Source: a virus. Taken from it: a stretch of DNA of 21,088 nt. The position numbers and the translations under genes are program-made. Positions 1-14,135 of this stretch are shown one piece after another. The notes beneath the pieces are model-generated. The model saw only the letters and a list, made by a program, of their open reading frames with translations, made no database searches and had not been told where the DNA came from. Location: the IMG/VR virus record IMGVR_UViG_3300035696_002027; one strand, 5' to 3'. How positions within the stretch are numbered: the first letter of the stretch is position 1; each line of letters begins with the position of its first letter.

Positions 1-1203
1 GGTCTGCAGCCCCTTCCTCTTCTGGACACGGAAGAGGCACCCCTCAACCCGCCGGACTACGCGGGCACGCTTCTCGACCTTGCACGGCGCTTCTCCGCCA
101 ACCGTGTTGGTTACGAGGACTGGGCAACGCAGCTGTTCCCAGTCGTCGAGTCTACGGCTTCTCCGCCCGTACAGCCTTACGGTGTGGCCGTTCGGCCGCC
201 GGATCTCATCGGAGGTCTGGACGAGGTCTACGACAATTACTTGCCGCCGGAGTTTGCTGGGTCGGTCACCCAGCTGCCTCTCGGAATCTACTTCCGAGAC
301 AAGGACTTCCTAGGTAAATCGCTTTACCAACAGATCAACTCCACAGGAATCGGTGCCAACTCGTACGGCACCTTCACCTTCCTCGAGTACGAGTCCGCTC
401 TTGCTCCTTCGGCTCCTGGCACTTCGACCTGGGAAGGCACGGAGTTCGTTTGCGGCAATACGTCGGGTACGGCAGGGGTCGGCTCCGAAGCTGTTCTTCG
501 TGTCGACGGCACCTCGAACCCGGCGAGCGTCACGGTCTTCAAGACAACTCGTGGCGGAGCTGCCTGGTCCGCTACTCCGCCTTGGGTGGGTGGCGTCATC
601 TCGTCTCGCTTCCCCAAGCTGCGCCCGAACATCAACGCGGGTTCTGTTCTCGTCGGTTCGGCCTTCCTCGTTCGGACTCAGCCCGAGACTCAGGGGACGA
701 CCGAAATCCACATGGGCAGCGAACTGCAGATGTTCATCGTGACCCAAGCGGTTCCTGCCTACTTCAAGGAGACGAACGTTTCCCACTCGGCAGCAGGAAC
801 GAACGAGGGGTTCACAGCAGTTGACCGTTACCGTCTCCTCGGCAAGCCCCTCGAGGCCCGCCGCGGTTACGTGGACATGTCGATCCTGCCGGTTCCTCCG
901 CCTCTGTTCGTGACCAACATCTACGACAACCCGCTATTCTACGGTTCGGCGGACGTGTCGCTCAACTCGCAATTCCAGGGCACTCTGCCTGTCACGGTCA
1001 ACGGGCAGACGATGTTCACGCTTCCCAGCCGTCCGCAAGACCCGACTGCGGTTCTTGTGTGGCTCAATGGCGTAAAGCTCGAGAGTGGCGTGAACTACAC
1101 AGTCAGTGGCACCACCAACCAAACGCTGACGTACATCGTTTCGCTCAGCAATCCGGCGCTCGAGACGACAGACATACTCGAGGTTTGGTACCTTCTGTTC
1201 TAA
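1..1203 (+). CDS. 5'-truncated structural protein of unknown function (possibly a tail or baseplate component). Frame 1 has no stop codon from base 1, so the gene probably begins upstream of the window.
   Basis: Frame 1 is open from position 1 to the TAA at 1201-1203; the ORF-track start at 184 is a GTG. The protein is Gly/Thr/Ser-rich with beta-like segments (VWLNGVKLESGVNYTVSG) and no catalytic motifs. It sits immediately upstream of the giant fibre-like gene. Confidence 0.55.
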   Translation, partial: GLQPLPLLDTEEAPLNPPDYAGTLLDLARRFSANRVGYEDWATQLFPVVESTASPPVQPYGVAVRPPDLIGGLDEVYDNYLPPEFAGSVTQLPLGIYFRDKDFLGKSLYQQINSTGIGANSYGTFTFLEYESALAPSAPGTSTWEGTEFVCGNTSGTAGVGSEAVLRVDGTSNPASVTVFKTTRGGAAWSATPPWVGGVISSRFPKLRPNINAGSVLVGSAFLVRTQPETQGTTEIHMGSELQMFIVTQAVPAYFKETNVSHSAAGTNEGFTAVDRYRLLGKPLEARRGYVDMSILPVPPPLFVTNIYDNPLFYGSADVSLNSQFQGTLPVTVNGQTMFTLPSRPQDPTAVLVWLNGVKLESGVNYTVSGTTNQTLTYIVSLSNPALETTDILEVWYLLF

Positions 1204-1215
1204 TAGGACTATCCG

Positions 1216-4200
1216 ATGACGCAGCCGCGCAAAGAACAGATTAATGACCAGAGGACGTACTACACCCGGGTTGACTCCGTTGGTGTGACGACGCCCATCC
1301 CATTCGGCACGCCGGATGTGCCTGGTGGGACCGTTCAGACGATTCAAAACACGATCGTCGAGAACTACTACAACGAGTTCCTGGCTGCCACCATCACCGG
1401 AACTCCCGGCGGTGCAGAGCAAGACACTCCCGCGTACTTCTATGGAAACTCGGGACCTTTCTCTCCTCCCGTTTCCTCAGGCTCGACGTTTACCATCACA
1501 CTTCCTGGCATCAACTCCGGGAACCCCGTCGCCATCACATTCCAGCCGTCCGATGTTTTCGACATTGGCGGCATTCCGTACATCACGACCTCGCAAGTCG
1601 CCAAGCGGATCAACCTCGCGTTGACGGCCGCAGGAGTCTCTCCGACTTCCCCTGTCGCAGTGAACAGCAATGGTCAGCTCTTGCTGCTTTCCGCCAACAG
1701 CTCTGGATACACGTACGGAGAAACAGCGTTCATCACCGTCAACGACCTGACGGTCGGTGTTTGCACGGCTCTCGGTCTTGCACCCAGCAACACAGCCACT
1801 TCGGTCGGGATTTCGTCTCCCAAGCGCGGCATCGTCACGACGGTGATGAATGACACGCCCATCAGCCCCAACGGGCCACAGCTTGGAGGTCTGGTCCAGC
1901 TTCTGCTGCCGGATGCTTCGCCGGCGATAACGAAGTCGCCGATTCAGATCAACGTCGGTGGACTTGGGAATCTGCCTCTCTACCCATCAGGGCAGTCCAT
2001 CATAGGAGGCCTTCAGCAGTTCACGAACACTGCCGGGAACTCGAAGTTCACTGTCCAGTACCATAGGCAGGGCGCGGTCCCCGGCAAGGTTGTTACCAAG
2101 GGTGGAAACTTCTCTACCCTCTCGAATACCGACACTTTCCAGGTGACGGTCAATACAGTTAACCCAGCACTGTTCGGTCTACCAGGCACAATCTCTGCCG
2201 ACCCGGCCATTCAGACATACACCTTCACGGTCTCCTTCTCCAGCACCCCAACTGGAGCCAGCGACGTTATCGCAGCGGTGAACACCGCATGGAATGCGAA
2301 CGCGGTGGCTCAAGGATTCCCCGCTGGGACAGAAGCCGGACGCGGTGGTGTCTACGGCAATGTTGCCGGGCCCTGGCAGTTCATCAATGGTCTGGACCAG
2401 TTCTGGATCGTATTCAACGGTCAGAACCCAGCGACGAACGCGGTGAACATCACACCTCCTGGGTTCAACGGTGTGGTGACGTGGACTGCCACGGACCTGA
2501 TGACCTTCATCAATGCCCAGATCACAGCTTCGGCGGCGAACGGGCAAGGAACAGCATCAGTCGGTCCAGGCGGCACCATCCAGATCACGAGTGCGCTCAC
2601 TTCAGGTCCGAGTTCTACAGTTCAGATCATCGCTGGCGATCTGAACAATCCGTTTGCCGCTCCTACGGGTCCGGGCGATCTGGTGACGACGCTCGACAAG
2701 CTCGGAATTTCTCCTGGCGTTTACTCGGGGTCTGTAATTGCCAGGCCGTACGGCAACGCGGCCACTCCAGAAGACATTGTGTTTGCCTGTCCGGACCACA
2801 CGGTCCAAGACCCGTACGGCTCTCCATCCGGAATTACCATCACTGGTTCTTCTACCGTGATGGCGAAACTCGGCCTGAGTGGTACGACGATAACTGGAAA
2901 TGTCACGATCGGCACAGAGCCCGTGACCCCTCCGATCGTTCACGCCCTCATCCCGGAGATGATGTACTTCGGGGAAGTCCCGGAGAATATCGAGACTTCG
3001 ACCGATAGGTTCCTTACGACAGATGAACCTTCTCCTGTCGCTCCAGGCTCTGGAACTGGTAACCTCGGTACGTCTCCGCTTCTCGGTCTCGACGGAAAGA
3101 TCAACCCGGACCTCGTCCGCAAGGTGTTCGACGTACTGAGTGTCGACTCGCTTACGCTGGGTGCTAGGCAGACAGGCTACCTGCAGGGCAATGAGATAGC
3201 GCGAGTCCTCACTCCGTTCAGCGCGTCCTCGGGCAGCGGGATGACTTTGCTGTGGCAGGGAGTGTCTACTGCTGGACTGACGGGGATCGGCGCCTCGCAG
3301 ATCATGCGGCTATACGCCGACTACGCCGGCGGGTTGTGGCTCACTACGAATGCGGCTCGCTTTGGGGCAGCCACGCCGCTTCAGTGGGATAAAGACCCGG
3401 GTCAAACTGGCCAGTCGGCTTCGGCCATTTACATCGGACAGTCCACGACAGCGGGCGTTCCTAAGGTGGAGTTCCTGTACGCGCCGGCTTCTGCCTCGAA
3501 TCCGTTCATCTTCGGTGGGTCTATCGGGACAAGTGCCAACGCTCCTGTTGGGGTCGACCCTTCCGGCGCTCTTGGTGGAGCTCTCGCGTTCTTGCTCGCG
3601 GGAACTGCCAGCACAGCAAGCAACGAGAACATCATTCCTCGTCTTCTGGCCCAGGTAGCTCCGAACACCTTTACTCTGGTTTGGCAGACCGTTCAAGTCG
3701 CCGGAACAGAAAACGTCCGAGTTTACAGCTACGTTTCGGGAACCTCGCAAACCGAATACTGGTTGACCGTCAACGCTTCGTGGACTGGCATCGCGTGGAC
3801 GAAGGACACCTCCGGGGTGAACGCCTACGCTCTACAACTCCAGACGGGAAACAATCCCGGAACTCTGCCCACTGGCATCGGCGTACAGTCCGGGCTTTTC
3901 CTCTACTACCGTGCGCCGGGGGATAATACTCCGTGGGCTACCTGGACGGCCAATGGCGGGACCACGGGACCCAACAGCTTTGCTCCATTCTCCGTCACCG
4001 GTCAGAACGGGACGGGAGGTGGCACTCTCAACGCGAACAACCTGAGGCTCGCCGATCCTGGTCAGCCCAACTTCCCGGACATTAAGGCACGAATCTCTGT
4101 TCCGATGCGTCCGAGCGTGCCTGTTGGGGCTCCGTTCCGCACTGGGCGAGTCTTGGTATCCGAATTTGGTACTGGACCGCAAGGGACTCCCACCATGGGA

Positions 4201-5241
4201 GTCATCGGCGCAAACGGAGCGGCGACGATTACGGCTGTCGGTGGTGGGCCTGGCTCCAACCTCGCGACCATCAATGTCCCCAGCATTGTCACTACTGGTT
4301 TCACTGCTAGTATGCAGGGTCAGTGGGTCGAGATCACCGGAGCTGCAAATTCTGGAAACAATGGCATCTTCCAGATCGCCAACGTTCTGAGCACAAGCTC
4401 GGTCCAATATGTCAACCCGCACGCCTCGCTACCTGATGCGAATAACCCAAATATTTACTGGGCCATCGGTGGCTCCGGCTTCGGGCAGATCTGCCGAATC
4501 TACCGAGGCCAGGGGTTCCAGGGTAACGGCGGTTTCGGGCCTCAGCCGTACGACTTTGTGGCCATGACCGTGAATGCCGCCTGGAACAACGCCAACTGGA
4601 TTCCGGACCTTCCTGGCATCCCTGCTACAATGCAGATGTGGTTCGCGGCTCCGGAAAATCAGGGTGGTGTCAATGCCGGAACCGGATACACGCAGTTCTT
4701 CACTGTTCAGCCTTCCGGCTTCACTCCGTGGGTCGATTCTGACTGGGTATGCGTGACTAGTATCAGCTCCAACGGAATCGAAGTTCCGCATTTGGATGAC
4801 ACATACAACATCAACGCCATACCTAACCTTGCCAACACGGCTACCCTGGTCAAGGCGTGGGGTAACATCATCATCGCTCCAGGGAATCCGCCCACGTTCT
4901 ACTGGTATCCAAACGGATCTGGCTCCAACGCTATCTTCGATAGCTACAATCTTTCCAGTATCTCTTGGTCGAGCGGAAACCCGTCCGCCGTCACTTTTAC
5001 GATGAACGCGGGAATGGATGCGGGGAACTTTATCGTGTTGGCAAAGCCGATTGCCAGCTTCATCGTCAACTTCCCGACTGAAGATTTCGAAGTTGGCGGA
5101 GTTCCGGCCGCCTCCAATCAGTTCGAGCTGCAGTTCTTTAATTTCTCTCCAGCTTCTTTCTGGGGAACTAGTGGACCGCCCACTAACTCCCTCGAGACTC
5201 TCGAAGGTGGAGCTGAGTTCATCGTGATCGGGAGGCAATGA
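1216..5241 (+). CDS. Giant (1341 aa) Gly/Thr/Ser/Ala/Asn-rich structural protein; putative tail fibre, tail spike or receptor-binding protein.
   Basis: A single uninterrupted 4-kb ORF, with ATG 12 nt downstream of AGGA. Composition is low-complexity (G, T, S, N, P, A) with no Walker or catalytic motifs. Such composition is typical of phage fibres and adhesins. The alternative-frame and antisense ORFs here are Arg/Ser-rich artefacts of high GC. Confidence 0.8.
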   Translation: MTQPRKEQINDQRTYYTRVDSVGVTTPIPFGTPDVPGGTVQTIQNTIVENYYNEFLAATITGTPGGAEQDTPAYFYGNSGPFSPPVSSGSTFTITLPGINSGNPVAITFQPSDVFDIGGIPYITTSQVAKRINLALTAAGVSPTSPVAVNSNGQLLLLSANSSGYTYGETAFITVNDLTVGVCTALGLAPSNTATSVGISSPKRGIVTTVMNDTPISPNGPQLGGLVQLLLPDASPAITKSPIQINVGGLGNLPLYPSGQSIIGGLQQFTNTAGNSKFTVQYHRQGAVPGKVVTKGGNFSTLSNTDTFQVTVNTVNPALFGLPGTISADPAIQTYTFTVSFSSTPTGASDVIAAVNTAWNANAVAQGFPAGTEAGRGGVYGNVAGPWQFINGLDQFWIVFNGQNPATNAVNITPPGFNGVVTWTATDLMTFINAQITASAANGQGTASVGPGGTIQITSALTSGPSSTVQIIAGDLNNPFAAPTGPGDLVTTLDKLGISPGVYSGSVIARPYGNAATPEDIVFACPDHTVQDPYGSPSGITITGSSTVMAKLGLSGTTITGNVTIGTEPVTPPIVHALIPEMMYFGEVPENIETSTDRFLTTDEPSPVAPGSGTGNLGTSPLLGLDGKINPDLVRKVFDVLSVDSLTLGARQTGYLQGNEIARVLTPFSASSGSGMTLLWQGVSTAGLTGIGASQIMRLYADYAGGLWLTTNAARFGAATPLQWDKDPGQTGQSASAIYIGQSTTAGVPKVEFLYAPASASNPFIFGGSIGTSANAPVGVDPSGALGGALAFLLAGTASTASNENIIPRLLAQVAPNTFTLVWQTVQVAGTENVRVYSYVSGTSQTEYWLTVNASWTGIAWTKDTSGVNAYALQLQTGNNPGTLPTGIGVQSGLFLYYRAPGDNTPWATWTANGGTTGPNSFAPFSVTGQNGTGGGTLNANNLRLADPGQPNFPDIKARISVPMRPSVPVGAPFRTGRVLVSEFGTGPQGTPTMGVIGANGAATITAVGGGPGSNLATINVPSIVTTGFTASMQGQWVEITGAANSGNNGIFQIANVLSTSSVQYVNPHASLPDANNPNIYWAIGGSGFGQICRIYRGQGFQGNGGFGPQPYDFVAMTVNAAWNNANWIPDLPGIPATMQMWFAAPENQGGVNAGTGYTQFFTVQPSGFTPWVDSDWVCVTSISSNGIEVPHLDDTYNINAIPNLANTATLVKAWGNIIIAPGNPPTFYWYPNGSGSNAIFDSYNLSSISWSSGNPSAVTFTMNAGMDAGNFIVLAKPIASFIVNFPTEDFEVGGVPAASNQFELQFFNFSPASFWGTSGPPTNSLETLEGGAEFIVIGRQ

Positions 5242-5864
5242 TGTTTCCGGTTATCTATCACGACACTATTGCTATTCCCAACAGGCAGGAATTCAACATT
5301 CGTGTGGATTCCTTGTCGGAGACTCAGCTAGTACTCCGAGCATGCAAATTCGTTGTAGGTGGTCAAGTCTACACGCTTGCTACTGACGTGTCATTCGACG
5401 CGACCAACATAAGTCTCATTGCGGAGTTGTGGGGAACTCCGGATGGGAAAGCACAGCTTCTTGTCTATGACCGTCGCATTCTTCGGTTCGTAGACATGGC
5501 TTCCGGCCAGGCGATGACCCAAACATACGGGTCTAGACTAAGGCCCGTTGTAGTTCATGTGTCTTACCACAAAAACCTGATCACCAACCAACAGTATATT
5601 GGTGATTATTTCCTAGTAAACAGGCTTCTGAAGTCCCAAGAAGTCCCAGCGGACAAGATTCTTCTTTCACCTTCATCGTCGCCACCGTCCCCAGCTGTTA
5701 CGGAAGCGAACGTCCCGGCTCTGCAAAAAGCCCTGGCTGCTTTTCAAGCTACGCAAACAGCTTCAGCCCCGCCACTCAAAAAGTGGTCGGAGCTGAACGC
5801 GACGGAGCAGCAGGAAATGATGGCTAAAGTCGCTGCTCAGATGGGTCTGGTCGCGAAGGCCTAA
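5241..5864 (+). CDS. Hypothetical protein, candidate fibre-assembly or accessory protein. Its start overlaps the stop of the giant gene.
   Basis: GGAGG at 5231-5235 is followed by ATGATG at 5238-5243. The second ATG (5241) has the correct 5-nt spacer and overlaps the upstream TGA, which indicates translational coupling. The ORF has a lower-GC centre. No recognisable motif. Confidence 0.55.
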   Translation: MFPVIYHDTIAIPNRQEFNIRVDSLSETQLVLRACKFVVGGQVYTLATDVSFDATNISLIAELWGTPDGKAQLLVYDRRILRFVDMASGQAMTQTYGSRLRPVVVHVSYHKNLITNQQYIGDYFLVNRLLKSQEVPADKILLSPSSSPPSPAVTEANVPALQKALAAFQATQTASAPPLKKWSELNATEQQEMMAKVAAQMGLVAKA

Positions 5865-6448
5865 TTGCAGATCCCGCAGGCCTGACCAGCACCCATTCCG
5901 TGCGACTGGCAGGGACCGAGGTTTCCTGCGAGGCACGTGAGGACCGATCCTCCCTGCTGGAAGCAACCGATGATGGTCTGCTCCTGCTGGCAGGTCAGGG
6001 GCTCGTTCCAGGTGTCGTTGCAGTAGTTCTCGATGCAGTTGACACACTGGAAGCTGCCGGCGTCCCAGTCGAGCTGGCAGGTCGTGCCGGAGTCCATACC
6101 GCCAGAGCTCGAGCCGGATGAACTTCCACTGGAGCTGCCGGAACTCGAACCTGAGCTGGATCCACTGCTTGACCCGCTGGAGCTTCCCGAGCTGGATCCA
6201 GAAGAACTTCCGCTGGAGCTGCCCGAACTGGATCCGGACGAACTTCCCGATGAACCCCCGCTGGAGGAACCCGTCTCGTTTCCTGCCTCGGTCGGCGGGT
6301 CGCCGGTCTTCTGATCGGGCGACGAGTCCTGCCCTGACATGAGGTCGGAGTCGCCTCCGGCGTCCGGAGCATCCCCCGAGCTGAAGGAACTTCCGCCGCA
6401 TCCGACGAGGGCTGCACAGAAAACCAGAAAACTGACTGCGAACTTCAT
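5861..6448 (-). CDS. Secreted lipoprotein with a long (GSSS)n flexible linker and a Cys-rich C-terminal domain.
   Basis: The minus-strand ATG at 6446-6448 is preceded by GGAGGAGAG. The N-terminus MKFAVSFLVFCAALVGCGG is a signal peptide with lipobox LVGC. About 15 tandem GSSS units follow, then a 10-Cys domain (CQLDWDAGSFQCVNCIENYCND...ACGICN). Its stop codon overlaps the convergent stop of 5241..5864. Confidence 0.7.
   Translation of the reverse strand: MKFAVSFLVFCAALVGCGGSSFSSGDAPDAGGDSDLMSGQDSSPDQKTGDPPTEAGNETGSSSGGSSGSSSGSSSGSSSGSSSGSSSGSSSGSSSGSSSGSSSGSSSGSSSGSSSGGMDSGTTCQLDWDAGSFQCVNCIENYCNDTWNEPLTCQQEQTIIGCFQQGGSVLTCLAGNLGPCQSHGMGAGQACGICN
6098..6271. repeat. Imperfect tandem 12-bp repeat array encoding (Gly-Ser-Ser-Ser)n on the minus strand; the plus-strand reading is ELPELDP-like.
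   Basis: Units such as gaacttcc(a/g)ctggagctgcc(g/c)gaact... recur across about 170 bp. The translation is SSSGSSSG about 15 times within the lipoprotein. Confidence 0.7.
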
Positions 6449-6461
6449 TTCATTCTCTCCT

Positions 6462-6524
6462 CCAATTGGCTACATGGAGGCCATCAGAATTTCCGAATCC
6501 CAATTGGATACTTCCAATTGGATA
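6462..6524. promoter_or_regulatory. Divergent intergenic control region with three copies of the palindrome CCAATTGG; the second and third are followed by ATA, and all three by AT-rich sequence. A candidate plus-strand sigma70-like promoter TTGGAT-18 nt-TATGAC (6518..6547) lies inside it.
   Basis: CCAATTGG occurs at 6462-6469, 6500-6507 and 6514-6521 in the AT-richer 120-bp gap between the divergent genes 5861..6448(-) and 6570..7001(+). The -35-like hexamer overlaps the third palindrome. Confidence 0.35.
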
Positions 6525-6569
6525 TACTTATCTGGCCTTCCTATGACCCGCCGGAGCCGAGGAAGCACC

Positions 6570-7001
6570 ATGAAGATTCGTACCGCAATGCTGTTCAGTC
6601 TCTGCCTCACGGTGGCGCTTTTCAGCTCGAGTCTCGCGTTCGCACAGACCCCGTCTCCTGCGCCTGCTGTGATCACGACGCAGTCTGCGATCGTGGTCAT
6701 TCTCGCGCTGATCGTGGGCTACATCGGCCAGGCGGTCAACACGGGAAACCTCTTCGGCATCGTGACGACGCCGAAGGCATGGATTCCCTACCTGACCCTC
6801 TTCGGGTCGTTCCTCGCGGCCTTCGGGACCTCCATTCAAGGAGATTCCACACTCAACAGCGCTGCCTGGTTCAACGCGGTGACTGCCGGGTTCTCGGCTC
6901 TCATGGCGGCGGCGGGCGGTTCCGCGGCGCACACTCACCTCAACGCTCACAAGACCACGGCCGCCAAGACGGCCCCTCCCCCTCCCGCAAAGGCGGCCTG
7001 A
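6570..7001 (+). CDS. Small membrane protein with a cleavable signal peptide and 2-3 transmembrane segments (holin-like or envelope protein, function unknown).
   Basis: ATG at 6570 follows GAGGAAG with a 4-nt spacer. The N-terminus MKIRTAMLFSLCLTVALFSSSLAFA-QT is followed by hydrophobic helices (AIVVILALIVGYIG, WIPYLTLFGSFLAAFG, AVTAGFSALMAAAGG). The upstream ATG/GTG extension (6339) has no RBS and crosses the divergent regulatory region. Confidence 0.6.
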   Translation: MKIRTAMLFSLCLTVALFSSSLAFAQTPSPAPAVITTQSAIVVILALIVGYIGQAVNTGNLFGIVTTPKAWIPYLTLFGSFLAAFGTSIQGDSTLNSAAWFNAVTAGFSALMAAAGGSAAHTHLNAHKTTAAKTAPPPPAKAA

Positions 7002-7003
7002 AC

Positions 7004-7408
7004 ATGAAGCTCTTCCGCGTTTTCGCGCCGGCTGCAATCGTCCTGGGCCTCGGCCTGGCGGTCGGTGGAACTCAGACTGGCTGCGGCTGGTTCTCGAGCA
7101 ACAGTCCTCAGGTCACCTCTGACGTTGGACAGATCGCTAGCTGCGTCATCGCCCAGATGTTCCAGGGCGTGACTGACCCGCTCAAGATCGTGTCAGCCTG
7201 CGTTCCGGCGACTCTCGCGGACGTGGAGCAGATCATCGCGAGCATCATCAACTACTACGACCAGCCTGACGCGGCCGTGGGTGACGCGCACCCCGGCGTC
7301 GGCAAGCCGCCCTTCGACAAGCTGCCCGCCAGCGTCACGAGCGCCCAGCTCGCAAGCTTCAAGCAGCTTCACGATCAGACCAAGGCCCAGATGGCAGGAG
7401 CGAAGTGA
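7004..7408 (+). CDS. Secreted or lipoprotein-like small protein (N-terminal signal sequence; function unknown).
   Basis: ATG at 7004 lies 2 nt after the upstream TGA (6999-7001). MKLFRVFAPAAIVLGLGLAVGGTQTGC is a signal peptide with a Cys shortly after. Its stop TGA 7406-7408 overlaps the next ATG. Confidence 0.55.
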   Translation: MKLFRVFAPAAIVLGLGLAVGGTQTGCGWFSSNSPQVTSDVGQIASCVIAQMFQGVTDPLKIVSACVPATLADVEQIIASIINYYDQPDAAVGDAHPGVGKPPFDKLPASVTSAQLASFKQLHDQTKAQMAGAK

Positions 7409-8280
7409 TGGCATTCTTCAAGGGAGCCAAGAAGTCTCAGCCGCACAAGCTCGCCTCCAAGAAGGCGGGAGCTTCTCACCCGGTCATCGCCGTGATGCTT
7501 GCTGCGGCGAGCATTCCGGCGTCCTGTGACCTCGCCCCGTACGAGCCTACTCGGCTCGACCAGGGCCAGTCCGGGTCGTGTACGGCACACTCCTTCTCGG
7601 GGAGCACCTCGACGGCTTGCCGCAAGGCGGGCATCGTCCTCGGATTCGAGCCCAGCCCGCGCGAGACCTACGCCACCACGCGTGGAATCGAGCGTGCTGC
7701 GGCGACCCCGGCAGGGACCCCTCTTCCCGCCCTCACGGACTCGGGCGCTGAGCCCGCGGATGTGTTCACGGCCGGGTCGACCTTCGGCACTTCGCCGATG
7801 CTCGGCCCGACTCCGGACGGCCGCAACTCCGACATTTGGACGGCCGCTGACACGACCGCCCAGCCGGAGAATGTCAACAACGAGCCCGATGGCAACCAGC
7901 TGCAGACGGCTGGTACTTCCATCGTCACGGGCGAGTACGCTATCGACCCGACTGCCGCCAACGTTTCGGACGTTGTCGCTGCAGCCATCGCTTCGGGCTT
8001 CCCGGTCTACGTCGCGTTCTTCTGCGACACGGCCTTCGAGCAGCTGCAGGTCGGCCAGATCGCGCAGCCGCCCAACACGAACGACCCGAACGGCGGCGGT
8101 CACGCCGTCTATCTGTCCGGTTACACCACGAACGCGGACGGAACCCGCACCTTCATCCTCAGCAACAGCTGGGGAACCGGATGGTGCGACAACGGCCGGT
8201 GCCTCGTCAGTGAGGCATGGCTCAAGGCGACGTGGGAGCTCTACGTCATGGACGTTCAAGTCCAGAAGGCGGCCGCGTGA
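7408..8280 (+). CDS. Papain-family (C1A) cysteine peptidase with an N-terminal basic plus weakly hydrophobic signal-like segment.
   Basis: All three papain signature blocks are present. DQGQSGSCTAHSF matches the QGSCGSCWAF block with the catalytic Cys and the oxyanion-hole Gln. GGGHAVYLSGYT matches the His block DHAVAAVGYG. NSWGTGWCDNGRCLV matches the block NSWGTGWGENGY. AGGAG lies 9 nt upstream, and the ATG overlaps the upstream stop (TGATG). Confidence 0.8.
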   Translation: MAFFKGAKKSQPHKLASKKAGASHPVIAVMLAAASIPASCDLAPYEPTRLDQGQSGSCTAHSFSGSTSTACRKAGIVLGFEPSPRETYATTRGIERAAATPAGTPLPALTDSGAEPADVFTAGSTFGTSPMLGPTPDGRNSDIWTAADTTAQPENVNNEPDGNQLQTAGTSIVTGEYAIDPTAANVSDVVAAAIASGFPVYVAFFCDTAFEQLQVGQIAQPPNTNDPNGGGHAVYLSGYTTNADGTRTFILSNSWGTGWCDNGRCLVSEAWLKATWELYVMDVQVQKAAA

Positions 8281-8735
8281 TGCGATCCATCCTCTTCTTT
8301 TCGGTCATCTGCGGTGTTGCCTGCATGGGAATGGCGGGGTGCCCTCCGACTCCACCCAACCCTCCAGTCACCGATTCAGGCGTCGCGGACACCTCGCCTC
8401 CTCCGCCTCCGGTCCCAACAGCGGATTCGGCTCCTACACCTCCTCCGCCGACTCCCGTCGTCGACGCATCGCCGCCTCCGCCGGCGCCTGTGGTTGACGC
8501 GGGCCCTGCTCCTTCCACGGATCCGTGTGTGAACGCATGCGCCCAGATGAACTCTGTGGGCTGCGCTCAGCAGGCGGACTGCGGCAAGGTCCTCGGACTC
8601 GTCAACGCCAACCGGACAAATCGTAACCCCAAGACCGGAAATGCACTGACCTGCACCGATCTTCTGGGCGTGAAGTCCTCGGCCGACGTGACCGCGAACG
8701 GCTGGACCTGCGGCGGCGCAAGCAAGAAGCACTGA
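8280..8735 (+). CDS. Proline-rich lipoprotein with a C-terminal 6-Cys domain.
   Basis: ATG 8280-8282 overlaps the upstream TGA 8278-8280. MRSILFFSVICGVACMGMAGC is a signal peptide with lipobox. A roughly 80-aa Pro/Thr/Ala-rich linker (PPTPPNPPV...PPPPAPVV) follows, then a Cys-rich globular tail. Confidence 0.65.
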   Translation: MRSILFFSVICGVACMGMAGCPPTPPNPPVTDSGVADTSPPPPPVPTADSAPTPPPPTPVVDASPPPPAPVVDAGPAPSTDPCVNACAQMNSVGCAQQADCGKVLGLVNANRTNRNPKTGNALTCTDLLGVKSSADVTANGWTCGGASKKH

Positions 8736-10860: not shown

Positions 10861-11295
10861 ATGACGCCCCACGAACTGTGCGAAGTAGCGAAGCGGGGAG
10901 GACTCGTTCTCTGGATGGGCGGTTCCATTGAGAGAATGATGGTCAAGGAGCATCAGATCCTCTCGTATGACGCCAACAAGGACGACGACCCGCCCGGCAC
11001 TTTGAATAGGCAGCCGTATTCGCTCATGGATACGTACTTCTGCGTAGAAGTCGATGAGTCCATATTCAAGATCCGAACAGAGACGCAGACCGTTCTGCGG
11101 GAGTGGCACAAGGATCACCACCAGGCGGATCTTATCGAGAAGACGGCTGTTTTTGCTCCGGCGTTCGGTAGGGCGTACTGCATGGAGCACGATCGCGCCA
11201 AGACCATGGGCAAGGATCCCACAGAGCCTCAATTCAAGAGCCACGTGGCCATCCGGTGCTGGGAAGTTCTGATTTCGGGGTACCGAACGGGCTGA
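10861..11295 (+). CDS. Hypothetical protein (144 aa).
   Basis: ORF between the SNF2 gene and the Zn-ribbon gene, tightly spaced (1-nt gap to the next ATG). No recognisable motif and no clear SD. Confidence 0.4.
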   Translation: MTPHELCEVAKRGGLVLWMGGSIERMMVKEHQILSYDANKDDDPPGTLNRQPYSLMDTYFCVEVDESIFKIRTETQTVLREWHKDHHQADLIEKTAVFAPAFGRAYCMEHDRAKTMGKDPTEPQFKSHVAIRCWEVLISGYRTG

Positions 11296-12114: not shown

Positions 12115-13623
12115 TTGGAGCGCATACTTCGCAGCGTATTGCAGGTAGGTGGTCATCCGGAAGTGGATGAAGCCCTCCAAAACTGGATGAGGCTCCAGGA
12201 GTACGAGCTTGATTATCCGCACGACGAAGATCGGAAGATCTACAATTACCTCAAGACGTTCTACAACCAAATGTCGGCGCCGCCCGACATTACTCTCGTC
12301 CGCGAGTTTTTCGAGAAGCAGGATGATGTAGAGACCGTCAACCGCGTCAACGAGATTTCGAAGACGCAGCACCAGATTCGTACGAACTTCATCGCGATTG
12401 TCCGTTCGCAGCAGGAGCAGCAGCAGGTCAAGGCGTTCGTTTTGGCTGCGCGCGACGCTTCGGCTATTGCGGAGCACGGGCGTAATCTCGAGAAGCCCGT
12501 CAACGGAAAGAAGCTGCTCAAGGGAGTAGTCGACGCCACCAACTTCTTCTACGAGAAAATGTCGGGTTTCGCCCGGGTCGAGACCGGCGAGAAGCTCGAG
12601 GGCATCGTCACTGACGACGCTGATGAGTTCCTGGAAGAGTACGAACAGGGCGAGCTAACAAGCAAGTTCGCGGGTCGCAACGTCATCGGCCTCGAGCCGG
12701 TCGACGTGGTCTGCAAGGGCCACAGGTCCGGCGAATTTTGGGTGCATTGCGCTGCTCCCGGAGAGCTGAAGACGACGCTCGCCCTGAACTACGCCTACAA
12801 CAATTCATACCTGTTCGGTCGCAACATCTTCTACGGAATCTTCGAGATGCCGTACAAGCAGCTTCGCCGGCAGCTTTTCGTTGTGCACTCCTCGCACGGC
12901 AAGTTCGTCACCGATTGGTATCGAGAAGACCGCAAGCGCGGGCTCCCTCCCGAGCAGTGCTACGTCGGGCTCGACTACCAGAAGGTGCGCGACTACGAAC
13001 TGGACGAGATCGGCAAGAAGCGTCTGCGCATCGTCGCGCAAGACTTCAAGGCCACCTGCCCTGGCAAGCTCTACATCTGGCGGCCCCAAGGGCAGGGCAC
13101 TCTCGTCGAAGACGTGCACCGCCGGGCCGAGATGTTCCACAACAAGTACGGATGCGACGGCATCGTGCTCGACCACATGGGATGGCTCAAGCCTAAGTTC
13201 AAATCGGTCAACACGATAGATCGCGTCAACGACGTGGTGTCCGAGTGTCGAATGATGGCGCTCTCCTTTGCTCGAGGGCGCACCGTCCCGGTCTTCGGCC
13301 TCTACCAAATCAACCGGCAGGGAAAGCTTCGGGCAGACAAAGAAGACGGCCGCTACGACTTCTCAGCAATTGCATACGCCAACCGCATCGAGCAGGATGC
13401 GGACGTTATCACCTACACCTACTTGAATCCGGCCCTCCGGAAAGACGGCAAGTTCTATCTGGGCTGTATGAAGAACCGTGACAATCCGGTCTTCGACAGG
13501 ATGGTGGGGAAGATAATTTGGCAGTCCAAGCGCATGCGGCATATTGATTCTGGTCTTCTGGATGTAAACAACGACCAAGCCATCATCCGCACGAGCCTCA
13601 CGATGGAAGATATGGTCGCTTAG
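12115..13623 (+). CDS. DnaB-family replicative helicase with a non-canonical Walker A.
   Basis: Blocks alignable to DnaB: AAPGELKTTLALN against ARPSMGKTAFALN, IVLDHMGWL against IDYLQLM, YQINRQG against SQLNR, and NRIEQDADVITYTY against SIEQDADLIMFIY. A TTG start at 12115 sits 9 nt after GGGGAGGAG; an alternative ATG is at 12184. The Walker A second Gly is replaced by Leu (G-E-L-K-T-T). Confidence 0.8.
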   Translation: MERILRSVLQVGGHPEVDEALQNWMRLQEYELDYPHDEDRKIYNYLKTFYNQMSAPPDITLVREFFEKQDDVETVNRVNEISKTQHQIRTNFIAIVRSQQEQQQVKAFVLAARDASAIAEHGRNLEKPVNGKKLLKGVVDATNFFYEKMSGFARVETGEKLEGIVTDDADEFLEEYEQGELTSKFAGRNVIGLEPVDVVCKGHRSGEFWVHCAAPGELKTTLALNYAYNNSYLFGRNIFYGIFEMPYKQLRRQLFVVHSSHGKFVTDWYREDRKRGLPPEQCYVGLDYQKVRDYELDEIGKKRLRIVAQDFKATCPGKLYIWRPQGQGTLVEDVHRRAEMFHNKYGCDGIVLDHMGWLKPKFKSVNTIDRVNDVVSECRMMALSFARGRTVPVFGLYQINRQGKLRADKEDGRYDFSAIAYANRIEQDADVITYTYLNPALRKDGKFYLGCMKNRDNPVFDRMVGKIIWQSKRMRHIDSGLLDVNNDQAIIRTSLTMEDMVA

Positions 13624-14135
13624 GCGGCTCTCTTCACGATCATCGAGCACATCTCCACAAATTCATCGTGGGTCATGTCAGTTTTCATCTGATTCACAGT
13701 TCTGGTGACCCATTGAATGTTGTCGATCGCATTTAGCCCTCCACGTGATCTCGGCACTATGTGATCGAGTGTTGCGTTATCGCCTGGGATTAGCTCGATT
13801 CCCGTGTAGACGCATTTTCGCTCTTGTTTTTCAAACGACTCCAAGAGCGCTGGTCCTAGGGACTGGTCTCCCATATTGTTTTGAGCACAGATGCGGAACC
13901 AACATTCTATTCCATATTTTCCGCACGTTGCTGGTTCACGACCACACTGATAGCAGACTCTGTTCTTAAGTCGGTGTTTCCTAACACCTTGGATATACTT
14001 GGTTTGTTTCTTCCCGCATTTACTGCATTTATCAGTTTTACGGTCATTTTTCTTGCCGCAAGCCGTGCATAACCCTTTCTTCTTTCGTTCAGCTCTGCGC
14101 TTCTTCATATAATTTCGACCATATTCTTTACCCAT
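13620..14135 (-). CDS. Free-standing HNH-family endonuclease (homing-endonuclease-like) with N-terminal Cys4 zinc ribbons.
   Basis: LDHIVPRSRGGLNAIDNIQWVTRTVNQMK is an H-N-N variant HNH core. CTACGK...CSKCGK and CYQCG...CGKYGIEC are zinc ribbons. GC is markedly lower (about 45%) than the flanks. It is the only minus-strand gene in this block, and its stop overlaps the DnaB stop by 4 nt. Confidence 0.85.
   Translation of the reverse strand: MGKEYGRNYMKKRRAERKKKGLCTACGKKNDRKTDKCSKCGKKQTKYIQGVRKHRLKNRVCYQCGREPATCGKYGIECWFRICAQNNMGDQSLGPALLESFEKQERKCVYTGIELIPGDNATLDHIVPRSRGGLNAIDNIQWVTRTVNQMKTDMTHDEFVEMCSMIVKRAA

Follow-up and report, generated by a model that had tools for sequence, protein, structure and literature searches.

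A minus-strand lipoprotein gene between two plus-strand blocks

The stretch of DNA analyzed here (the window; 21,088 nucleotides (nt), IMG/VR record IMGVR_UViG_3300035696_002027) carries a prolipoprotein gene at positions 5861..6448 of the minus strand, the sole minus-strand gene between two plus-strand blocks. Its coding sequence (CDS) begins with ATG, ends with the TAG stop codon at 5861..5863 and encodes 195 amino acids (aa); the positional orthologs in related phages were called at full length. A Shine-Dalgarno (SD) site, GGAGGAGAG (6455..6463, minus strand; read on the plus strand as the reverse complement CTCTCCTCC), lies 6 nt upstream of the ATG. This site, described as strong in the first-pass annotation, is conserved in the relatives L001, L029 and L030.

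The first 17 residues (MKFAVSFLVFCAALVG followed by Cys; 6398..6448, minus strand) form a predicted signal peptide with lipobox. They satisfy the PROSITE rule PS51257: the segment FLVFCAALVGC (aa 7–17) contains the box A-L-V-G-C with its cysteine at position 17, a lysine (K2) is found within the first seven residues, and the six positions preceding the lipobox are uncharged. The predicted lipid-modified Cys17 is encoded by 6398..6400 (minus strand), and the mature lipoprotein would be 179 aa long. The 195-aa protein has 12 cysteines, C11 and C17 in the signal peptide and ten in the tail between aa 124 and 194, so both the lipoprotein signal and the 10-Cys tail proposed at first pass were recovered.

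At its 3′ end the gene converges on an accessory gene of the plus strand. The two CDSs overlap in the tetranucleotide CTAA (5861..5864), which leaves no room for a terminator. The earlier statement of a 4-nt overlap holds for the CDSs; the stop codons themselves, TAA at 5862–5864 and TAG at 5861–5863, share 2 nt. As had been noted, the same geometry recurs at an HNH endonuclease gene at 13620, which overlaps the stop of a dnaB-like gene by 4 nt.

The existing Joint Genome Institute (JGI) call for the gene starts at M118 and covers the last 78 aa only (protein P0001; 5864..6097). From the sequence evidence, the open reading frame (ORF) 5861..6448 on the minus strand is nevertheless a real, independently expressed jumbo-phage gene encoding a lipoprotein, for two reasons. 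The units of its internal repeat are ~50% divergent in nucleotides, yet 13 of the 14 read GSSS in this frame only; and the SD site and ATG are conserved, with PS51257 satisfied in the window and in five orthologs.

Three modules and a repeat kept at the protein level

By its sequence, the lipoprotein is built from three modules, namely the signal peptide with lipobox, a disordered tether and a Cys-rich head. The tether (aa 18–123; 6080..6397, minus strand) spans 106 aa, of which 47% are Ser, 25% Gly and 4% hydrophobic, and is acidic with a net charge of −9. Within it lies the repeat (aa 60–117; 6098..6271, minus strand) that had been described as a (GSSS)15 linker encoded by a 12-bp tandem repeat. 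The coordinates were exact and the minus strand does encode SSSG/GSSS, but the array consists of 13 GSSS units, one GGSS and a terminal GG with scrambled codons. The head (aa 124–195; 5864..6079, minus strand) has 72 aa and ten cysteines in the spacing C-x10-C-x2-C-x4-C-x9-C-x8-C-x9-C-x7-C-x10-C-x2-C-N, which would fit five disulfides formed outside the cytoplasm.

No relative of the head was found. A word-indexed search of 5.8 billion clustered proteins returned the window’s own contig only, and an exhaustive phmmer search of 1.84 billion representatives returned the head itself and one further match, P0002, which we discarded as spurious because it was repeat-driven and did not share the Cys pattern. 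Neither the protein nor its orthologs matched Pfam, PHROGs, NCBIfam or PADLOC. The protein gave no match in a sequence search of the PDB, and tblastn and megablast against phage records (50,697 for tblastn) were likewise negative.

The GSSS array is a protein-level repeat, not a DNA tandem repeat. It draws on the full set of six Ser and four Gly codons and has no identical pair of 12-nt units; mean identity between units is 50% (44% for neighbors), and exact direct repeats reach 12 nt at most. Tandem Repeats Finder reported a single period, of 36 nt or three GSSS units (2.1 copies, 89% identity; 6174..6247), and no period-12 array. A 36-nt period of mixed codons suggests that the array grew by duplication of a 12-residue block that was already mixed in its codons. 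The differences between units are all synonymous in the minus frame only, which marks this frame as the one under selection. Folding of the repeat RNA was no better than for shuffled sequences (z = −0.74).

The first-pass annotation had recorded that both strands of the repeat are open and had rejected the plus-strand frame encoding ELPELDPEE repeats (ORF 6033..6314). Five of the six frames are indeed open across the repeat, and this openness proved to be an effect of composition. When the Gly/Ser stretch was recoded synonymously 20,000 times, the ELPELDPEE frame stayed open in 100% of cases and the second open antisense frame in 43%. Because it remains open whatever the Gly/Ser coding, the ELPELDPEE ORF is best explained as an artefact, and its rejection stands; the same ELPEL-type antisense ORF lies opposite the Ser/Gly linker of the relative L037.

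We also considered an overlapping gene in the same-strand +2 frame, which is open through the absence of NNT/AGY junctions (simple permutation, P = 0.0035). Throughout the window, AGY makes up 9.6% of the Ser codons after NNT versus 31% elsewhere, and against this context bias the absence (0 of 9) has a probability of 0.40; the candidate was dropped. The window contains 72 TAG triplets versus 259 expected from base composition, a 3.6-fold underrepresentation. Window-wide avoidance of TAG and of NNT/AGY keeps off-frame ORFs open and inflates ORF lists. Gly/Ser repeats, which leave nearly all frames open, have misled gene callers twice here, once in the JGI call for the window and once in the ENA record of L037, where a wrong-frame Arg/Pro-rich “protein” (L037 8718..9536) was called across the Ser/Gly linker of the ortholog.

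A conserved positional family in related phages

We compared the locus with six related genomes: L001 (the same as L038), L029, L030, L031 (to which L032 is identical), L033 and L037. All six have a gene at this position, likewise on the minus strand. The common order is a tail-like gene (visible only where the relative’s contig reaches that far), a giant gene and one or two small accessory genes, all on the plus strand, followed by the minus-strand gene. Downstream follow two genes for small membrane or secreted proteins, a papain-like peptidase gene and a gene for a Pro-rich lipoprotein, all on the plus strand, and then SNF2. This order is complete in L001, L029 and L031; in L033 a single 257-aa gene replaces the two small ones, and the contigs of L030 and L037 end before it is completed.

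In L037 the N-terminus of the minus-strand product runs off the contig, placing its signal peptide outside view. The five other copies are complete, were called at full length (183, 290, 180, 357 and 202 aa) and encode predicted lipoproteins with conserved start and signal peptide of the form (S/I)(F/L)LVF(C/V)AALVGC, each satisfying PS51257. The convergent junction is tight in the orthologs, with distances from −7 to +1 nt.

The lipoprotein gene is, by this comparison, a conserved positional family rather than an HNH-like insertion. It had been proposed to be inserted stop-to-stop in the manner of the HNH gene (13620..14135). That gene is absent at the same site in the closest relative, L001, and the lipoprotein gene is kept in six genomes, so the shared stop-to-stop geometry is no sign of a shared origin.

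Tether length is kept, whereas heads are replaced

The N-terminal 53–60 aa are 40–67% identical between members of the family (67% for L030 and 48% for L001 versus the window), and beyond them the sequences part. Where the window repeats GSSS, L001 repeats DTGTTDSG and L030 IPQDSG; L031 has GSSS/GGSS followed by four perfect copies of GGSDS, and L033 and L037 have long Ser runs. In some relatives the linkers are exact DNA repeats of 24–50 nt. These patterns point to an evolutionary turnover of the linker through tandem duplication. All tethers of the six complete genes are acidic, with net charges from −9 to −27, and contain few hydrophobic residues. The distance from the lipid-bearing Cys to the first head Cys is 106 aa in the window and 95, 106, 108, 101 and 141 aa in the others; it is thus ~100 aa (95–108) in five of the six, though the sequences are unrelated. 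From this we infer that tether length may be under selection.

The heads differ from each other throughout. Their sizes and cysteine contents are 72 aa with 10 Cys in the window, 87 with 12 in L001, 51 with 12 in L029, 163 with 8 in L030, 59 with 10 in L031 and 199 with 26 in L033, and L037 combines Cys-rich repeats with a YWTN propeller. No head matched any other, and the alignment of the window’s head with that of L001 scored no better than shuffled sequence (z = 0.3). A C-x2-C-x4-C core common to the heads, picked out by eye, was set aside for lack of statistical support. The number of cysteines per head is even in all six complete genes, as would be expected for full disulfide bonding in an oxidizing compartment outside the cytoplasm.

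Lipoproteins of the same kind are encoded at the same locus in the more distant jumbo-phage relatives L002, L012, L018, L020, L003 and L006. They share the lipobox, a low-complexity Gly/Ser/Asp/Thr linker and a Cys-rich head, and their genes lie between the giant-protein gene and SNF2. In contrast to the window, the gene is on the plus strand in all but L006, following the giant-protein gene (L002 7828..8826, L012 4969..5943, L020 4925..5899, L018 5014..6120 and L003 8928..9497), and the heads contain 17–58 cysteines (17–31 in the plus-strand five). These heads carry a CVPxxC...CG...DGCG...C..C motif for which there is no Pfam or NCBIfam model, and BLASTP found no similarity between these lipoproteins and that of the window.

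The family pattern is therefore more informative than the gene itself, which is an ordinary-looking orphan. The family offers unrelated small disulfide-rich heads, probably envelope binders, on a linker conserved in length and not in sequence.

A trough of divergence centered on the convergent junction

We followed protein identity to the relatives along the locus. It is 77–91% in the first ORF (the C-terminus of a tail-like protein), falls within the giant protein from 59–68% (residues 1–400) to 33–52% (residues 801–1150) and to 0–48%, in short stretches, over the last 190 residues, and reaches 0–33% in the accessory protein and nil in the lipoprotein head. It recovers to 40–67% in the lipoprotein N-terminus (for which L031 and L034 gave no match) and to 58–93% in the next three genes in most relatives; the exceptions are L034, with 35% or no match, and L033, in which the 143-aa protein is unmatched. 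DNA similarity to L001 ends near 3837 and returns at 6346, inside the lipoprotein gene. In L030, tether sequence and head are wholly different, whereas the neighboring genes are 81–93% identical to those of the window. This contrast implies that the variable unit comprises the fiber tip, the accessory gene, the head and the linker, with one of its boundaries inside the lipoprotein gene. The trough, centered on the convergent junction, lies in the host-interaction hot-spot of this uncultured jumbo-phage clade.

The genes upstream of the junction had been described as structural, and a tail or fiber role is plausible. The first ORF (1..1203, plus strand, listed as 184..1203) is open from base 1 and is truncated by the left edge of the window. 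It corresponds to the C-terminal 400 aa (81–89% identical) of a protein of 1123 aa (cut by the contig) to 1610 aa in the relatives, and these tail-like proteins match PHROG 1101, “tail protein” (E ~2e-7); a profile of the first ORF (184..1203) against PDB sequences gave noise only. It is followed by the gene for the fiber-like giant protein of 1341 aa (1216..5241, plus strand), whose homologs have 968–1552 aa, are unnamed and lack a Pfam domain. A conserved N-terminus with a variable C-terminus is typical of fibers, and we regard the giant protein as a putative one. The accessory gene (5238 or 5241..5864, plus strand) encodes 208 aa and is an orphan in the protein database search; copies in the relatives are 30–33% identical or replaced. 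In L029, a GIY-YIG/HNH homing endonuclease gene (4190..4966; PHROG 314, E = 6e-24) lies between the tail-like and the giant gene.

Intergenic boxes and the neighboring cassette

Upstream of the lipoprotein gene lies a divergent intergenic region (6449..6569). It contains a conserved leader on the minus strand, ATGTAGCCAATTGGAGGAGA (6456..6475), which comprises the SD site and the palindrome CCAATTGG; its 20 nt are identical in L001, and it is present in L029 and L030. Two further palindromic boxes, TATCCAATTGG(A/G), lie at 6500..6521. The window has three CCAATTGG sites over its 21 kb, all within 6462..6521, versus 0.2 expected, and none of 100 shuffles reached three. The boxes are likely an operator or promoter element.

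On the other side of this region, four plus-strand genes follow. They encode a holin-like protein with a signal peptide and ~3 transmembrane segments (6570..7001), a protein with a signal/lipobox-like sequence (TQTGC; 7004..7408), a papain-like peptidase (Peptidase_C1, E = 1.4e-8; 7405..8280) and a Pro-rich lipoprotein with lipobox MAGC (8277..8735), whose GTG start overlaps the peptidase stop and whose C-terminus is ~70% conserved in the relatives. The segment 6570..8735 is possibly a lysis or envelope cassette, with 8277..8735 as an o-spanin-like candidate.

The window represents part of a jumbo-phage genome. Among its products are an SNF2 helicase, a DnaB-like helicase, a primase zinc ribbon, an HNH endonuclease, DnaJ and the papain-like peptidase, and relatives of its SNF2 and DnaB proteins are found on IMG/VR contigs of 127–452 kb, plus one 36-kb fragment. 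In L029, the SNF2 gene (12017..) is enlarged to 1038 aa and has a faint LAGLIDADG match, possibly an intein. A 144-aa ORF at 10861..11295 has a counterpart in no relative. The HNH gene (13620..14135, minus strand), which has the 4-nt overlap with the stop of dnaB (12115..13623, plus strand), looks like a genuine homing-type insertion; in L001, dnaB is directly followed by a homolog of the window’s 107-aa gene and HNH is missing. Further downstream lies a gene for an 887-aa homolog of the major vault protein (14612..17275, plus strand; Pfam MVP_shoulder, E = 1.2e-23, and Vault_3, E = 1.6e-8), with a homolog in L001 that is 70% identical over the first 148 aa. Viral major vault proteins in gut phages have already been reported (2023 preprint, 10.1101/2023.11.10.566534).

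One cellular sequence resembles the lipoprotein. A 947-kb contig of the metagenome-assembled genome (MAG) Deltaproteobacteria bacterium HK-STAS-MYXO-11 (L036 3893..5941) encodes a ~650-aa lipoprotein that has almost the same signal peptide, SLVFCAALVGCG, and after it a stretch rich in Asp, Ala, Gly and Pro; the similarity does not extend beyond the signal and tether region. It hints, weakly, at a member of the Myxococcota as the phage host.

Possible function and alternative explanations

We tentatively propose, by analogy with T5 Llp and TP-J34 Ltp, that the lipoprotein may be a receptor-masking, superinfection-exclusion protein. Signal peptide and lipobox would direct export and lipid attachment at Cys17, leaving the head on a flexible leash from the host membrane, where it could bind and mask an envelope component. 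The likeliest target would be the phage’s own receptor; masking it, as the Llp proteins of T5 and BF23 mask theirs, would prevent superinfection and spare progeny from loss to cell debris. The Ser-rich spacer would act as a leash that sets the reach of the head, as in TP-J34 Ltp. The position on the opposite strand, with a conserved leader of its own and palindromic boxes, could allow timing apart from the flanking operons.

Several observations weigh against this proposal. The head is an orphan, with no homology or experiment tying it to any function, and its AlphaFold model, made from a single sequence, had a predicted local distance difference test (pLDDT) score of 39.5 and was unusable. 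The giant protein is without a family match; a model of its N-terminal 430 aa from a 12-sequence alignment reached a pLDDT of 49, and Foldseek searches of BFVD and the PDB gave TM-scores of at most 0.15. With all seven genomes different in both fiber tip and head, a co-variation of the two is conjectural. The gene also borders the membrane/lysis-like cassette, and a scan of the intergenic region and the convergent junction found no sigma-70-like promoter or terminator. The only hint at a host is the Myxococcota MAG lipoprotein described above. The known Llp and Cor proteins, by comparison, are of much smaller size and have no long linker.

The same architecture of export signal, leash and disulfide-rich head would equally suit a binder directed at a non-receptor component of the surface or periplasm, acting for example on rival phages, on cell–cell contact or exchange, or on a polysaccharide. 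The heads of L037 and L006 are of an obvious binding type (Cys-rich repeats plus a YWTN propeller), and the distant relatives have Gly/Ser-linker lipoproteins with CVPxxC...DGCG heads at the same locus. Such a role does not account for the place of the gene at the variable end of the fiber-like gene or for the divergence trough that the two share, and we consider it doubtful, even though the present data do not otherwise separate it from receptor masking. A role as a lysis accessory, that is, an outer-membrane lipoprotein (o-spanin-like or envelope-disrupting) working with the neighboring membrane proteins and the papain-like peptidase, is suggested by the divergent adjoining cassette (6570..8735); the lipoprotein nature and disulfide-capable cysteines are traits of spanins too. 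We judge this unlikely, since the gene and the cassette are on opposite strands, no partner gene encloses or follows the lipoprotein gene, the cassette has a better o-spanin-like candidate in 8277..8735, and the 179-aa mature protein with its ~100-aa tether is not Pro-rich. Moreover, phages with putative partners 58–93% identical have different heads, which gives no co-variation with a partner. A conserved N-terminus with a replaced C-terminus, together with a possible Myxococcota host, would also recall polymorphic lipoprotein toxins, in which a conserved delivery part carries swappable toxic C-termini, such as the SitA toxins of myxobacteria. This is very improbable here: the 3′ end abuts the convergent accessory gene (−7 to +1 nt) with no immunity gene downstream, Pfam, NCBIfam and PADLOC gave no match to a toxin family, and the heads, small (51–199 aa), disulfide-rich and even in Cys number, fit extracytoplasmic binders and not enzymes acting in the cytoplasm.

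Two explanations concern the repeat. One, that the real gene is the 78-aa C-terminal ORF alone or the ELPELDPEE ORF of the plus strand, would agree with the JGI start at M118 and with the five open frames. It is hardly credible given that start, signal peptide and lipobox are conserved in frame in five relatives whose callers gave full-length products, that all changes from one repeat unit to another are synonymous, and this in the minus frame only, and that the antisense frame, open under any Gly/Ser coding, recurs in L037. The other, raised at first pass as a phase-variable linker, sees in the GSSS array a hot-spot of slippage, with rapid shifts of copy number within populations. The linker does evolve by tandem duplication, as seen in the 36-nt period of the window (89%) and the exact 24–50-nt repeats of relatives. 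We find a contingency locus very unlikely all the same. With no identical 12-nt units and no exact repeat longer than 12 nt, the array is too dissimilar for slipped-strand mispairing, and because the unit length is divisible by 3, gain or loss of copies stays in frame and could not act as an on/off switch for the gene. In five of the six complete genes, the tether is kept at 95–108 aa. The CDSs of L031 and L032, which come from two samples, were identical despite a perfect array of four 15-nt units. Breaks of Logan contigs in the L001-type linker fall at a 32-nt exact repeat and are an assembly artefact; the assembly k-mer, which we take to be 31, is just below this length. A second copy of the window’s gene was not present in the protein collections searched, and contigs that are 94–95% related end short of the gene.

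Extending the receptor-masking proposal to the whole clade is more speculative. These phages might carry an undescribed cassette for host recognition and exclusion, consisting of the giant-fiber tip, the accessory protein and the convergent leash-and-head lipoprotein, in which tether length (~100 disordered residues), kept by selection, serves as a molecular ruler and the repeat sequence and head are exchanged together with the fiber tip. If this were true, the heads would be a rich and so far unexploited source of small receptor-masking binders, and the span between lipid anchor and receptor in the host envelope would be readable from the length of the tether. If exclusion holds, pairs of head and fiber tip would identify the receptors and hosts of phages available from metagenomes only.

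Comparison with known systems

Among small phage lipoproteins, the o-spanins (Rz1-type) come to mind because they, too, contain cysteines and are encoded near what may be a lysis cassette. An o-spanin gene is co-oriented with its i-spanin gene and adjoins it or is embedded in it, an arrangement that was not found for the lipoprotein gene. It lies on the opposite strand with no embedded or overlapping partner, its product is not Pro-rich, and head and neighbors do not co-vary.

Closer in plan is Ltp of the Streptococcus thermophilus phage TP-J34, in which a serine-rich spacer joins a lipid anchor to an effector domain (PMC3952083). Anchor and spacer are both found in the window’s protein. The effector of Ltp is a pair of helix-turn-helix-like repeats without disulfides, in contrast to the 10-Cys orphan head, and this C-terminal repeat domain was not detected by Pfam or PHROG. 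Sequence similarity to Ltp was likewise absent, also by tblastn. Ltp further differs in belonging to the lysogeny module of a temperate phage with a Gram-positive host, whereas the present gene belongs to a jumbo phage and encodes a far longer spacer.

In position, the closest parallels are the Llp proteins. The superinfection-exclusion lipoprotein Llp of T5 is encoded next to the receptor-binding gene and blocks FhuA (PMC9586334), and the non-homologous Llp of BF23, part of one module with the receptor-binding gene of that phage, blocks BtuB (PMC4728585). In T5 and BF23/DT57C, as possibly here, a phage lipoprotein gene stands beside a host-recognition gene as a swappable module (PMC9586334, PMC4728585), and versions in related phages may lack homology to each other and still do the same job. 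Llp has ~60 aa in its mature form and no long linker, compared with 179 aa, a ~100-aa tether and ten cysteines here, where the neighboring gene is only presumed to encode a receptor-binding fiber. Membership in the Llp/Cor family was not supported by PHROG or Pfam, nor by tblastn against the 50,697 phage records. The head of the lipoprotein has no relative in sequence or fold and the protein belongs to no described family; both its plan and its position have precedents.

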